From Candidatus Fraserbacteria bacterium (GTDB taxonomy: Bacteria; Bipolaricaulota; Bipolaricaulia; RBG-16-55-9): 64,000 nt of DNA. The position numbers and the translations under genes are program-made. This document shows, in pieces, positions 13,677 through 39,944 of the stretch (positions are counted from its first letter, which is position 1; each line of letters starts with the position of its first letter). Where the stretch lies: the NCBI GenBank assembly GCA_037443265.1, contig JBBIOR010000003.1:1-64000 (forward strand), in the 5' to 3' direction. The notes beneath the pieces were generated by a model that was not told the DNA's origin, did not search any database, and saw only the letters and a list, made by a program, of their open reading frames with translations.

Positions 13677-13765
13677 ACCCGATAAAGGCAAACCCAGCGA
13701 AAGCTGGGAGCGCAAAGCCACAGGCCTAAAGGAAGGTTCCTATGGCAGCTGGGCTGCCGAAGGTG
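13677..13765 (+). promoter_or_regulatory. c-di-GMP-I (GEMM) riboswitch
   Basis: GGCAAACCCAGC-GAAA-GCTGGGAGCGCAAAGCCACAGGCCTAAA...ATGGCAGCTGGGCTGCCGAA matches the GEMM consensus (GNRA loop, CCTAA/ATGG receptor, GCAAAGCC, CCGA). Confidence 0.9.
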
Positions 13766-35434: not shown

Positions 35435-35510
<76 letters not shown>

Positions 35511-36307: not shown

Positions 36308-37060
36308 GTGATGTCCCGTAGGGCATTCTGGGTCATTGGGGGAATGATCTGCTTCGGGCTCTTTAAGGGTCTGGCAGCCGAAGAGCCTCCGCTCCCCCAG
36401 CCGATAGGGGAGCTCAACGACTACGCGGGCATCCTGGGACAAGAGAGCCGCCAGCAACTCCAACGCAGCATCGATGAGCTGAAGACCCAAGGCGTGAAGG
36501 TGTTTTTGCTGATCACTCTTCTTGATCCCTTCAGCGATCCTGCGCAGCTGGCAGAGAGGATCTGGCAGGCGTGGAAGCTTGCGCCTGAGCGAACGATCCT
36601 CATCGTGTTCGTGAGGGAGGCAGACCAGTGGGCTCTCTGGTGGAAGCTCACGCCGGATCTGGCCTCACAGTTGGACTACTCCTCCACTGGGGAGTATCGG
36701 AGCTCTCTGGAGCGGCTCCTCAAAGAGCGGCGGGTGGGACAGGCTGTTGTGCATTCCATTGAGTCGCTGCGAGGGTGGTTTGCCCCTCCCAAAGCGTCTG
36801 AGGAACTTCCGCCCAGAGCGGGTCCTTCTGCGGGCTCTCCGCTCTTCTGGTACCTGCTGGCAGGAGCAGGCGGAGTGGGGATGATTGCAGGCTTGATCTG
36901 GTTCGCTCTCGTCTGGCTCTGCCCCGAGTGCGGGGGGAGGCTGAGCCGGCGTTCTGCCTGGGCTTTCGGGCCCGGCCGTTGGGCTCGTAGCCGGAGGCGC
37001 GAGCGGGTATACTATTGTGCGCGATGTGGGTATCTCCGCATCCGACGGGGAGAGAGGTAG
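36308..37060 (+). CDS. TPM-domain membrane protein with C-terminal Zn ribbon
   Basis: LNDYAGIL, TM helix, CPECG..CARCG. Confidence 0.75.
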   Translation: MMSRRAFWVIGGMICFGLFKGLAAEEPPLPQPIGELNDYAGILGQESRQQLQRSIDELKTQGVKVFLLITLLDPFSDPAQLAERIWQAWKLAPERTILIVFVREADQWALWWKLTPDLASQLDYSSTGEYRSSLERLLKERRVGQAVVHSIESLRGWFAPPKASEELPPRAGPSAGSPLFWYLLAGAGGVGMIAGLIWFALVWLCPECGGRLSRRSAWAFGPGRWARSRRRERVYYCARCGYLRIRRGER

Positions 37061-37406
37061 AGGGCCGCGGAAGCGTCAAAGCTTCTGAGGAAAGTCCGGG
37101 CTCCACAGGGCAGGCCGCTCGGTGAGAAGCCGAGAGGGAGCGATCCCTGGGTAAGGCCACAGAGACCAGACCGCCGACGTGTACTTCAGCCGACAGGCCC
37201 GAAGCGCACAGGCAAGGGTGAAAGGGTGGGGTAAGAGCCCACCGCCGGTCCTCGCGAGAGGGCCGTGGCTGGCAGCCCCCCGGCCGGAGCAAGGCCAAAT
37301 AGGCAGGCGCTTGAGGGTGGCCCGCCCGAGCCTGTGGGTAGGCCGCTCAGATAGATGGCCCTCGCCCTTCATCAGGGAACAGAACCCGGCTTACGCCTCT
37401 CTCCCC
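37047..37406 (+). ncRNA. rnpB: RNase P RNA (type A, lacking P18)
   Basis: P1 GGGGAGAGAGG/CCTCTCTCCCC; GAGGAAAGTCCGGGCTCC; GGGTGAAAGGGTGGGGTAAGAGCCCACC; GAGCAAGGCCAAATAG; ACAGAACCCGGCTTAC. Confidence 0.96.
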
Positions 37407-37433
37407 GGCTTTGCTTTTCTGCCTGACAGCAAC

Positions 37434-37465
37434 GCTTGGGTGCTCTTTGGGTCTTCGGTCCTCCG
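37434..37465 (+). repeat. Dispersed 32-nt repeat, copy 2
   Basis: 31/32 identical to 13871-13902. Confidence 0.85.
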
Positions 37466-37572
37466 GAGCCCTGACTCCCATGCTGTGGCTCCTTGGCCCC
37501 TGCCTGCCGCGTCCCGACGAGCATCCTAGCACAAAGCGACGGAGGGGACAAATGCCCTCTCTTAAGTTCGGC

Positions 37573-37600
37573 TTGCATCCAGAGCGGGAAGTGCTATAAT
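37573..37600 (+). promoter_or_regulatory. ssrA promoter
   Basis: TTGCAT, 16 nt, TG-C-TATAAT. Confidence 0.7.
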
Positions 37601-37965
37601 AGCCTTGCGTTCTTTGACAATTGGGGGTGAATGGATTCGACGGGGATGCCGAAGGGCAGGCCGCAGGTGGAGTTGGCCGCTCACTCCTTAATCAGGCGGC
37701 AAAGCACGATAAGTGCCAACGAATTTGCTTACGCTGCTCCTTCGCTAAACTAACGAAGGAGCCGTTCGCTTGAGCTTCCGCCTGCAGGGCTCAGGACGAA
37801 CGTCGATGATGCGGGCTGGCTCTACTCTGCGCCCTCCGGAGTGGAGTGACACCTAGAGGGCTCGGACGCCCAGATCCTGTCTCGTGGGAGCTTAGCGTCT
37901 CAAAACAGAGCACGAGACTATGCCTGTAGAAGCCGATCGGAGGCATCTCCGGACGCGGGTTCGAT

Positions 37966-38541
37966 CAACTGCGTTATGGCAGTAAGGGTCGTCAAGGCGT
38001 TATCTCAAGCTGAGGCAGCCTATTTAGCTGGGCTTGTGGACGGCGAAGGTACTATCACCTTGACCCACATACATAAAGGAGCTAATAGGCAGCTGTCGGT
38101 TTCCATAGCCAACGCACAAGCTCTAGAGCTACTTCAGCAAATCGCGCCGTACCTCCGAACCTACAAGAGGTTACGCGCTGAGCTGGTGATAGAAAGATAC
38201 AAAGCCTTGACGCCTAGAAACGGCAAATACTCCCCCGAGCTTCTGGCTGAACGGGAGAGATTCATAGCAGCTGTCCTTGCCATAACTCCGAAGGTCGCCC
38301 TGGGCAGTAATGCTCAGGTGAACACGGGGCTCACATCGGCGAAACCTGCTTGCCCACAAGGCAATGGCAACGCCGAGGGGTCGGAAGAGGGCTAACCTCA
38401 GGCCGGCCCTGTAGAGACTTATAGGCCCGCCGAAGCTCAAGCTGGGTGGGTACTAGGAGCACGTCAACGTGCTAAGACGCCCCGCATCCCAGGAGGGATG
38501 AAGGCATAGTCCAGCCCAGTCCGAAAGGATTGGAACCGCTG
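37966..38541 (+). mobile_element. Group I intron (subgroup IA) in the tmRNA T-loop
   Basis: Preceded by U and ends in G. P1 CGAU/GUCG; P2 38299-38318; P3 CGGGGC/GCCCCG; P4 TCGGCG/CGCCGA; R GTAGAGACTTATA; P7.1/P7.2; P8 CATCCC/GGGATG; S AAGGCATAGTCC; P9 CCAGTCC-GAAA-GGATTGG. Confidence 0.93.
37976..38395 (+). CDS. Intron-encoded single-motif LAGLIDADG homing endonuclease, probably internally deleted
   Basis: AYLAGLVDGEGTI motif; ALELLQQIAPYL..YK..RA. Confidence 0.8.
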   Translation: MAVRVVKALSQAEAAYLAGLVDGEGTITLTHIHKGANRQLSVSIANAQALELLQQIAPYLRTYKRLRAELVIERYKALTPRNGKYSPELLAERERFIAAVLAITPKVALGSNAQVNTGLTSAKPACPQGNGNAEGSEEG

Positions 38542-38585
38542 TCCCGCCACCTCCACCAGATGTCGGACGTGAGAAGGATACTGCG

Positions 38586-39944
38586 ATGAAGACACTGAGT
38601 TGGGTTCCCATACTAGCTGTGGGATTTACTTTGGTCTTAAGCACTGCCCATCTCAGTCAGAGTCAAACCTCCCCAGGACCCATACATCTTCTCAGTGTCA
38701 AGGCCAGCATCAATCCCATCACCAAAGATTATTTGATCAGTCACATTCAGCGTGCCCAACAGGAGGGGGCCTCTCTGGTGATCATCCAGCTGGATACGCC
38801 CGGAGGACTCGTCTCCTCTACCAAAGACATCGTGGATGCCATTCTCAATGCGAGGGTGCCCATTGTAGTCTGGGTCGGTCCGGCGGGTGCCTGGGCGGCC
38901 TCCGCCGGGACGTTCATCACGATGTCGGCCCATGTGGCCGCGATGGCCCGCGGAGCCACCATCGGAGCGGCCCACCCTGTAAATATTGACGGCTCAGCCC
39001 CCAGCAAGGAGCGCCCCCCAGGGGAGCAGAGCAAAGACCAGCAAGAGCCCTCACAGGGGAGCGGAGATGCCGTCACGGAGAAGGTGACGAATTTTACGGC
39101 CGAGTGGGCGCGGGAGATCGCCAAAGTCCGTGGCCGCGATCCCGACTGGGCCGAACAAGCTGTCCGCTCCAGTGTGACCGCTGGCTGGGAAGAGGCTCTC
39201 AATAAGAAGATCATCGATCTGGTGGCGGACAGCAGGGAAGAACTCCTTGAAAAGCTCAACGGCTATGCGCTCCAGGATGGCCGGACGCTCACCACCGAGG
39301 GCTTGCCTGTCTTGAACATGCCCATGAGCTGGCGCGAGCAGCTCCTCAACTATCTGGCCGATCCCAATCTCGTGTATATTCTTCTGCTCATTGGGATCTA
39401 TGGCCTCATCTATGAGTTTTTGAGCCCCACGATCGGGCTCGGGTTCATCATCGGAGGCATCTCACTTCTTCTGGCGTTCTTGGGATTACAAGTCCTCCCC
39501 GTCAATCTTGTGGGGCTGGCCCTCATCTTCTTTGGCGTCCTGCTCATGATCCTAGATATCTTCACGCCGACTCACGGCATCCTGACGACCGGGGGAGTCG
39601 TTTCGCTCTTAGTGGGCTCCTTCACGCTCTTTGAGATTCCCGATCCCGCATGGCAGCTGTCGGTCTGGAACATTCTGGTGACGGTGGGGGCGGTGACGGG
39701 GCTCTTCCTCTTCTTCCTCAGCAAGGGGCTCTTGGCCCAGAGGCGCGTGCCGGTCACAGGCCTGGAGGGCATGATTGGGGCCCTAGGGATCGTCAAGGAT
39801 GATTTGAACCCCAAAGGCCGGGTGCTGGTCAAGGGCGAGTACTGGTGGGCTCTTCCTGTGGACGGTCAGCCCATTTCTTCCGGAGCAGAAGTCATCGTCG
39901 AGCGGGTGGAGAACGGACGACTGCTCGTGCGCCGGCGCTCGTAG
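38586..39944 (+). CDS. nfeD: NfeD-family membrane serine protease
   Basis: LDTPGGLV, AASAG, IGAAHPV, TM bundle, P.GRVLVKGEYW OB fold. Confidence 0.92.
   Translation: MKTLSWVPILAVGFTLVLSTAHLSQSQTSPGPIHLLSVKASINPITKDYLISHIQRAQQEGASLVIIQLDTPGGLVSSTKDIVDAILNARVPIVVWVGPAGAWAASAGTFITMSAHVAAMARGATIGAAHPVNIDGSAPSKERPPGEQSKDQQEPSQGSGDAVTEKVTNFTAEWAREIAKVRGRDPDWAEQAVRSSVTAGWEEALNKKIIDLVADSREELLEKLNGYALQDGRTLTTEGLPVLNMPMSWREQLLNYLADPNLVYILLLIGIYGLIYEFLSPTIGLGFIIGGISLLLAFLGLQVLPVNLVGLALIFFGVLLMILDIFTPTHGILTTGGVVSLLVGSFTLFEIPDPAWQLSVWNILVTVGAVTGLFLFFLSKGLLAQRRVPVTGLEGMIGALGIVKDDLNPKGRVLVKGEYWWALPVDGQPISSGAEVIVERVENGRLLVRRRS

Follow-up and report, generated by a model that had tools for sequence, protein, structure and literature searches.

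The window analysed here is a 64,000-nucleotide (nt) stretch of DNA from Candidatus Fraserbacteria bacterium (Bipolaricaulota), positions 1-64,000 of contig JBBIOR010000003.1 in the assembly GCA_037443265.1. In this window, the ssrA gene for transfer-messenger RNA (tmRNA), at 37623-38558 on the forward strand, is interrupted in its T-loop by a group I intron. The preferred reading, to which a probability of roughly 0.88 is given, is that the insert is a well-preserved subgroup IA intron of the intron-form tmRNA lineage, that it is probably spliced out, that the resulting tmRNA and SmpB would be the sole recognisable ribosome-rescue system, and that the P1 loop holds a decayed endonuclease gene. 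The assembly is a metagenome bin of 1.69 Mb in 44 contigs and is 88% complete.

The gene starts with GGGGGTGAATGGATTCGAC, the 5' end of the tmRNA, followed by the tag frame and the pseudoknots. The Rfam tmRNA model RF00023 matches 37630-37967 (131.7 bits, E 2.9e-51), and its last 15 positions, covering the T-arm and the acceptor, are unaligned. ARAGORN called no gene on the native genomic sequence. When 37966-38541 was removed in a script, ARAGORN called a tmRNA of 360 nt that has both tRNA-like domains and carries the tag ANEFAYAAPSLN. Exon 1 ends with ...GCGGGTTCGAT (also read as ...GGACGCGGGTTCGAT) at 37965, and the insert separates T-loop bases 6 and 7, with GGGTTCGAT on its left and TCCCGCCACCTCCACCA on its right. 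Its removal restores the T-arm, the acceptor stem and CCA, and the junction of the predicted spliced form reads ...GGTTCGAT followed by TCCCGCC. The tag ending ...AAPSLN before the stop is common to the window and intronless relatives from the same family, such as G001, whose tag reads ANELAYAAPSLN in its sequence. The original prediction had given the limits of the gene and of the insert, which follows a U and ends in G, exactly to the base, and its claim that the tRNA-like domain is complete only without the insert agrees with the ARAGORN calls.

The secondary structure, P1 to P9 plus P7.1 and P7.2, was drawn by hand from a close-relative set of seven sequences, window included. In this set, 99.2% of 511 cells pair, against 35-42% in slid controls, and 12 of 74 pairs are changed on both sides. 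Without hand input, RNAalifold recovered P2, P3, P4, P5, P6, P7.1, P7.2, P8, and P9, the long-range P3 included; P7, which is pseudoknotted with P3, was missed. P7 is presumably the guanosine-binding helix. One P3 pair (columns 34/213) is A-U in the related genome G028 and G-C in the other six sequences. A 3' strand of P3 directly after the R element (AGGCCC) was considered and rejected, as those bases covary with GGYRGG as P7.1, while GGGGC/GCCCC shows the A-U swap in G028.

A wider search for the pattern of R and S elements in a species-level genome collection yielded 118 stretches, 80 of which were examined. Seventy-seven of these parse as GGGTTCGAT, intron, and TCCC(G/C)CC...CCTCCAC, and the other three lack one flank. 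The record titles of this family include Pseudomonadota (Steroidobacteraceae, Woeseiaceae, Burkholderiales, and two Thiocapsa records not marked as metagenome-assembled genomes), Nitrospirae, Nitrospinota, Planctomycetia, Bacillota, and Bipolaricaulota. For covariation, 49 ORF-less introns (without an open reading frame, ORF), mutually less than 88% identical, were taken from 76 short ones. Among them, 96.7% of 3375 cells pair, compared with 33-44% with slid partners. Compensatory changes are seen in 33 of 69 pairs and in 314 cells, and none of 500 shuffles reaches the observed values. The third pair of P3, for example, is GC in 30 members, AU in 12, and GU in seven. The last intron base, omega G, is present in all 49 aligned members. 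In four loci (L057, L075, L105, and L110) the intron ends in ...GCCG instead of ...GCTG, with omega G kept. Of 119 columns shared by at least 48 of the 49 members, the window deviates at two, namely the bulged P7 base 38420 and one exon base.

A covariance model, designated as R1, was built from 47 family introns with a structure computed by RNAalifold; it contains no Bipolaricaulota row, and the Nitrospinota row was left out. R1 matches 38319-38541 at full length with 212.2 bits (E 2.4e-63), and this is its sole match in the window and in the genome. As had been predicted, the T-loop of ssrA contains a group I intron. The predicted P2, P3, P4-P6, R, P7.1/P7.2, P8, S, and P9 with its GAAA loop are all present, the core helices being supported by covariation. 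By the criterion reported for subgroup IA (Michel and Westhof, 1990), P7 is separated from the 3' strand of P3 by two additional hairpins, P7.1 and P7.2; the intron carries both and belongs to this subgroup. Both hairpins are listed among the class features in the available part of a review (PMC3984707).

The predicted U-G wobble of P1 also stands, and a U.G pair is found in 49 of 49 family members; the placement of the internal guide was corrected. The 273-nt ORF-less intron of G033 revealed that the guide is the GGTCG directly before P2, at 38293-38297. The other GGTCG (37987-37991) is not accepted as the guide, as no relative reads GGTCG there in the alignments. This second copy, identical to the guide and 22 nt inside the intron, is seen in the window only and could form a decoy P1. 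The first guide base (38293) is G in six of seven close relatives and A in L017. With the guide at 38293-38297, the P1 loop is 326 nt long and contains an ORF. The features of the gene and the intron are collected in Table 1.

Table 1. Features of the interrupted ssrA gene and its intron, in window coordinates.
Feature	Position	Strand	Description	Basis
ssrA exon 1	37623..37965	+	5' acceptor strand, tag frame, pseudoknots, T-arm 5' half and six T-loop bases (ends ...GGGTTCGAT)	RF00023, 131.7 bits; ARAGORN on spliced form
Tag reading frame	37715..37753	+	GCC...TAA, encodes ANEFAYAAPSLN and stop	ARAGORN, positions 93-131 of spliced tmRNA
P1 5' strand	37962..37966	+	CGAU, splice site, C; U37965.G38294 wobble	Sequence reading; U.G pair in 49/49 family members (columns 9/39)
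Group I intron	37966..38541	+	576 nt, first base C; -1 base U37965, omega G38541	Sequence reading, covariation, covariance model
LAGLIDADG homing-endonuclease ORF, decayed	37976..38395	+	139 codons; in-frame 38-codon deletion	ORF list, Pfam, alignments
P1 3' strand (internal guide)	38293..38297	+	GGUCG, directly 5' of P2	Invariant in 7/7 close relatives except first base; pairs with exon in 49/49
P2 hairpin	38299..38318	+	CCUGGGCA-GUAA-UGCUCAGG	All 8 pairs covary in family
P3 5' strand	38326..38330	+	GGGGC; partner 38479-38483 GCCCC (pseudoknot with P7)	Covariation; recovered by RNAalifold unprompted
P4, J4/5, P5, P5a	38336..38376	+	P4 UCGGCG/CGCCGA, J4/5 AA, P5, P5a hairpin	Alignment, RNAalifold
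P6 and P6a	38378..38409	+	GGGUCGG/CCGGCCC and GAGG/CCUC	Alignment, family covariation set
R element	38411	+	GTAGAGACTTATAG	Sequence reading
P7 5' strand	38414..38422	+	G[A]GACU[U]AU in R element; partner 38506-38512	All 7 pairs invariant in 49/49
P7.1 hairpin	38426..38450	+	CCCGCC...GGUGGG	5/6 pairs covary (helix 8)
P7.2 hairpin	38458..38473	+	AGCACG...CGUGCU	4/5 pairs covary (helix 9)
P3 3' strand	38479..38483	+	GCCCC	Alignment, covariation
P8 hairpin	38485..38500	+	CAUCCC-AGGA-GGGAUG	Alignment
S element	38501	+	AAGGCATAGTCC	Sequence reading
P7 3' strand	38506..38512	+	AUAGUCC (S element)	Family covariation set
P9 hairpin	38516..38533	+	CCAGUCC-GAAA-GGAUUGG; GAAA loop at 38523	5/7 pairs covary (helix 11)
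ssrA exon 2	38542..38558	+	TCCCGCCACCTCCACCA: last T-loop base, T-stem 3' strand, acceptor 3' strand, CCA	Sequence reading and ARAGORN

The intron is expected to be removed in two steps. The entire gene would be transcribed as a single precursor, in which the ribozyme core (38293-38541) would fold and the guide would pair with the exon bases CGAU, presenting the U37965.G38294 wobble. An outside guanosine would attack after U37965, and the freed exon 1 would then attack after omega G38541. The exons, once joined, would form the 360-nt tmRNA, its T-arm intact and its acceptor with a G3.U pair, and this tmRNA together with SmpB would be the only recognisable ribosome-rescue system of the assembly. 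The tmRNA model has 15 matches at E <= 0.001 in the whole assembly; only the window's is above the cut-off, while the others score at most 33.9 bits and are tRNA-like. A second intact ssrA, which the original prediction had named as a possible refutation, is thus not seen in this 88% complete assembly. The smpB gene is present as an open frame of 152 amino acids (191.9 bits). No short ArfB-like factor was found in the assembly, whose only frames with an RF-1 domain are two long ones (347 and 419 amino acids). From the intact ribozyme core, the single ssrA, smpB, and the tag ending, we infer that a splicing-competent intron is the best reading.

Several points weigh against this reading. A search of sequencing runs found no public RNA run containing this DNA, and splicing is predicted from the gene itself. 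The 326-nt P1 loop and the second GGTCG (37987-37991) could slow or misdirect the formation of P1. The assembly is 88% complete, which leaves room for another ssrA or a backup rescue factor in the unassembled part. The hand-drawn structure comes from the same sequences on which it was evaluated, which inflates the contrast with slid controls; this bias is mitigated because the RNAalifold result and the structure of R1 were computed without hand input. Finally, the Rfam group I intron model RF00028 finds nothing at E <= 10 in the window, in the whole assembly, or in the loci of the five closest relatives, the 273-nt ORF-less form included. Among eight more distant family members, three match RF00028 end to end (E 1.5e-5 to 2.4e-3), which connects the family to group I; their scores of 26.9-34.3 bits stay under the gathering score of 50, and the other five members are missed. 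According to the part available of a preprint from the tmRNA database group (10.1101/2020.01.27.920355), the 12 sequences in the RF00028 seed include no bacterial one. As RF00028 misses five of eight undoubted family members, its silence on the window is regarded as a limit of sensitivity and has little weight. The lack of a covariance-model hit, which the original prediction had named as a refutation, formally holds for RF00028; R1 (212.2 bits) and the tmRNA model RF00023 do match.

It is unlikely that the intron is a dead relic which no longer splices, with ssrA a pseudogene and rescue performed by something unassembled or unrecognised. The decay of the associated endonuclease gene, the lack of RNA evidence among public runs, the 88% completeness, and the P5a of the window, which is shorter than that of its relatives (helix 4), are compatible with such a relic. 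However, neither of the two deviating near-invariant columns of the 119 is at a paired core position, and the 99.2% pairing in the close set includes the window. The tag frame, the acceptor stem, and the T-arm are intact, the tag ends as in intronless relatives, and smpB is intact.

Still less probable is that the intron does not self-splice and needs a helper, either a host factor or the shortened LAGLIDADG protein acting like a maturase. Some LAGLIDADG proteins act as maturases, the ORF is still open for 139 codons despite its deletion, and the best PDB sequence match of a full-length relative, a weak one (E 0.024), is titled "mRNA maturase". Yet of the 78 family introns parsed, 76 lack an internal ORF, at lengths of 261-306 nt, so the ribozyme does not as a rule require a protein encoded in the intron. 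In addition, the relatives G022, G023, and G026 carry different, frame-destroying deletions, and the GAGG before the ATG is lost in the window copy.

The locus was also compared with sequencing runs. A separately assembled Logan contig of 13,888 nt from run X1 covers 37400-38800 with zero differences; it may come from the source sample and thus is not an independent confirmation of the assembly. Run X2 contains only pieces of 18-56 nt matching conserved parts of the region, and no sequence of run X3 was placed on the region. Record 3 of run X1 has an uninterrupted T-arm junction with 18+18 nt identical to 37948-37965 and 38542-38559 of the window. Its flanks are unlike those of the window, indicating another organism, and the match is too short on each side to serve as a bridge. 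Such an uninterrupted T-arm is the kind of site expected to be cut by an active endonuclease of the same family. The joining of the insert into ssrA by metagenome mis-assembly is very improbable: although the genome is a 44-contig metagenome bin and the same sample holds that uninterrupted 18+18-nt junction, the 13,888-nt contig crosses the entire region without a difference, the same architecture is seen at the same base in six related genomes, and the uninterrupted contig, with its different flanks, is from another organism.

A DNA search of 40 related genomes, with the loci read individually, revealed the distribution of the intron. An insert at the same base is present in six genomes of one genus from another family of the same order (G012, G022, G023, G026, G028, and G033), while in G017, from a third family, an intron starts at the same base and is cut by the contig end. 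ssrA is uninterrupted in twelve related genomes; these are the intronless alleles that the original prediction had suggested looking for among relatives. In a phylum sample of 184 genomes, the intron core was found in seven, the window's and six of the 14 genomes of the carrier genus. It was found in none of the eight other genomes of the window's family, where incomplete genomes cannot show absence.

The exons and the intron of the window have different affinities. The tmRNA exons are 71-81% identical to those of six relatives from the window's own family and 68-70% identical to those of the carrier genus. For the intron core, identity is 77-82% to the carrier genus and 79% to an ORF-less Bipolaricaulota relative. 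The T-arm of the window, GCGGG TTCGAT T CCCGC, is identical with the one in the carrier genus, whereas all six own-family relatives read have CCGGG...CCCGG; the difference is a compensatory stem pair adjoining the insertion site. Intron-bearing alleles across phyla share GACG(C/G)GGGTTCGAT. In a tree of 55 cores, the seven Bipolaricaulota introns and one Nitrospinota intron are placed on a long branch with support of 100/100, the interior of this clade being unresolved. The latter intron, L063 (titled uncultured Nitrospinota), has a P2 resembling that of the window and a 3' exon ...CCTCCACTTG without CCA. A T-arm matching the carrier genus and not the own family is the pattern expected from exon co-conversion during homing. 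These observations fit a horizontal acquisition of the intron with co-conversion of the exon; ancient presence with many losses, or a constraint on the target site, is an alternative explanation.

The ORF in the P1 loop was absent from the original account of the intron. It starts 10 nt inside the intron and encodes the motif LAGLVDGEG, and its tail runs through the 3' strand of P1, P2, P3, and P4-P5 into P6. The window ORF scores below the Pfam cut-offs, with 17.4 bits for LAGLIDADG_3 (cut-off 22.5) and 17.9 bits for LAGLIDADG_1 (cut-off 23.1). Intact relatives pass LAGLIDADG_3: the 178-residue ORF of G012 (locus L010) with 26.8 bits and the ORF of G028 with 26.6 bits. The window has a 114-nt in-frame deletion, removing a block of 38 codons that is kept in all 21 other aligned proteins and has many nearly invariant positions. 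The alignment with P0007, the closest intact protein, extends to either side of the gap (E 6e-61). The core fold of LAGLIDADG proteins is alpha-beta-beta-alpha-beta-beta-alpha. With the 38-residue gap, the window copy appears to lack a complete core, and the lost part would be the beta-sheet core. Upstream of the ATG, GAGG is present in G012 and G026 (GAGGG in G028), while the window has GCG. To judge from these features, the window copy is a decayed remnant and not an enzyme.

The intact relatives resemble homodimeric single-motif LAGLIDADG enzymes of the I-CreI, I-CvuI, and I-MsoI type in having one motif near the N-terminus, and the enzyme part of an intact relative is about 145 amino acids long. 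Its sequence matches to chains of I-CvuI, I-MsoI, and I-AniI are weak (E 0.04-0.11). Unlike I-CreI-type enzymes, the window copy is without 38 core residues and is below the Pfam cut-off. The intact enzyme presumably cut intronless T-arm DNA and had the intron copied in. As the in-frame 38-codon deletion took the DNA-binding sheet, the window intron would be an immobile passenger that must still splice. Other deletions are found in the carrier genus. G026 has lost the C-terminal half, G022 the N-terminal part with the motif, G023 both, and G033 the entire ORF. As read from these sequences, the order displays the full series from an intact endonuclease gene through deletions and an ORF-less intron to an intronless allele.

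Homologues of this endonuclease were also found beside introns of other phyla. The endonuclease family comprises 1645 proteins at E <= 0.001 among 1773 candidates. A local tblastn search of 80 of the 118 species-level intron loci detected a homologue in 30. In three of the 80, it lies in the P1 loop, upstream of R; two of these are titled Bipolaricaulota and one Thermotogae, the latter with a tmRNA of the carrier-genus type. In the other 27 (within L044-L114), it is downstream of S, 26 on the same strand as the intron and one on the opposite strand; several are broken, and they are 36-60% identical in the longest tblastn segment. Among 80 loci on metagenome contigs encoding relatives (L155-L234), the gene is after S in 45, while no S was found in 28 and no R in six. 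The complete 3' exon and CCA lie between S and the gene in all 25 inspected metagenome loci with the gene after S, so that the gene is outside ssrA, starting about 65-190 nt past CCA. In one of these contigs, L231, a match at 901-1651 starts 34 nt past the 5' splice site and extends beyond S and the 3' exon; it may be made up of two pieces, one of them in the P1 loop and the other further downstream.

The free-standing genes accompany introns of the same lineage as the window's. This lineage is represented in Pseudomonadota, Nitrospirota, Planctomycetota, and others, for example by Thiocapsa roseopersicina DSM 217 (L102) and Thiocapsa sp. KS1 (L065). These introns share the splice sites, the flanks GACG(C/G)GGGTTCGAT and TCCC(G/C)CC, and the helices with the window. 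They differ in being 261-306 nt long and ORF-less. The available part of the review PMC3984707 describes collaborative homing and the invasion of ORF-less group I introns by endonuclease genes, with a free-standing enzyme on the one hand and a composite intron on the other. This model predicts both states, a gene beside an ORF-less intron in some hosts and its homologue within the intron in others. In contrast to the cases described there, which concern protein-coding genes of phages, the gene here is a bacterial tmRNA gene. A combined interpretation is put forward tentatively, at somewhat below even odds. Both stages of the association would be present in one lineage. In Pseudomonadota, Nitrospirota, and further groups, the gene would stand free just downstream of an ssrA with an ORF-less intron, whereas within a single order of Bipolaricaulota it would have moved to the P1 loop. 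This order would show every step of the homing cycle, including four independent deletions, and the window copy would be a cross-family acquisition.

The founding case of a T-loop intron in tmRNA was reportedly described by Williams in 2002 from Clostridium botulinum. In the available text of the 2025 tmRNA database paper (NAR Genom Bioinform, PMC11915505), such group I introns are known since 2002 (its reference 11), and 883 unique intron-form tmRNAs from 21 phyla are counted, most with the intron at T-loop "position 7". The original prediction had called T-loop introns known but rare; they are known, while "rare" is relative in view of these numbers. By the numbering of the Figure 2 legend in that paper, the insertion site of the window, between the sixth and seventh T-loop bases, appears to be "position 7". 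The window shares with the intron-form tmRNAs described there the gene, the subsite, the -1 U, omega G, the R/S core, and the P9 GAAA loop. The seed alignment tmRNA_intron.sto (Supplementary File S1) holds JAILZC010000303.1/2012-1382 and JACRHA010000082.1/11755-12383, whose contigs are the loci L071 (titled Bipolaricaulota) and L076 (titled Nitrospirae), respectively. Homology to published members is indicated by the R1 score and by the core identity of 77-82% to relatives, one of which is in the seed alignment.

The position of the endonuclease gene is different. According to the same partial text, the endonuclease genes of the 23 founding cases are after P9 (four) or in the P7.1 region (19), with 36 of 883 overall, whereas in the window and its relatives the gene is in the P1 loop. 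Neither a P1-loop endonuclease site nor a gene outside ssrA was found in the portion of PMC11915505 available. The names Bipolaricaulota, Thiocapsa, Steroidobacter, and Woeseia were not found in the available supplement, whose sequences go by accession only. The kind of element is thus already known, and the additions are modest: the placement of the endonuclease in the P1 loop, the series of its decay, and the contrast with free-standing homologues elsewhere.

The surroundings of ssrA are as follows. An RNase P RNA of class A (214.9 bits) is at 37049-37408 on the forward strand, 214 nt upstream of ssrA, so that two stable-RNA genes adjoin on the same strand. A promoter scan, by its criteria, detected no site of the sigma-70 type, and past the CCA end no terminator was found. 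The sequence TGCTATAAT, seen by eye at 37592-37600, 22 nt 5' of the tmRNA, was given no weight. A gene for an NfeD-family membrane protein (38586-39944, forward strand) starts 28 nt past the CCA end of ssrA. A similar frame of 449 amino acids follows ssrA in G012, and comparable frames are past the CCA end in relatives. No island or integrase is present at the window's ssrA, which is directly followed by the NfeD gene. Elsewhere in the window are a c-di-GMP-I-GGC riboswitch aptamer at 13678-13762 on the forward strand (76.4 bits, gathering score 59) and a tRNA gene at 35438-35510 on the reverse strand (Rfam tRNA model, 67.2 bits).

General knowledge of tmRNA and group I introns is unchanged by this finding. 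For annotation, standard tools fail on this gene: with ARAGORN silent, the Rfam tmRNA match cut in the T-loop, and no intron reported, ssrA would look truncated. For the study of mobile elements, the decay of a homing endonuclease can be followed within the order as a compact natural series, and the same endonuclease family is found outside and inside the same intron across phyla. This contrast could be used to test the model of collaborative homing leading to a composite intron in bacteria. For the organism itself, trans-translation appears to be dependent on a correctly working ribozyme.

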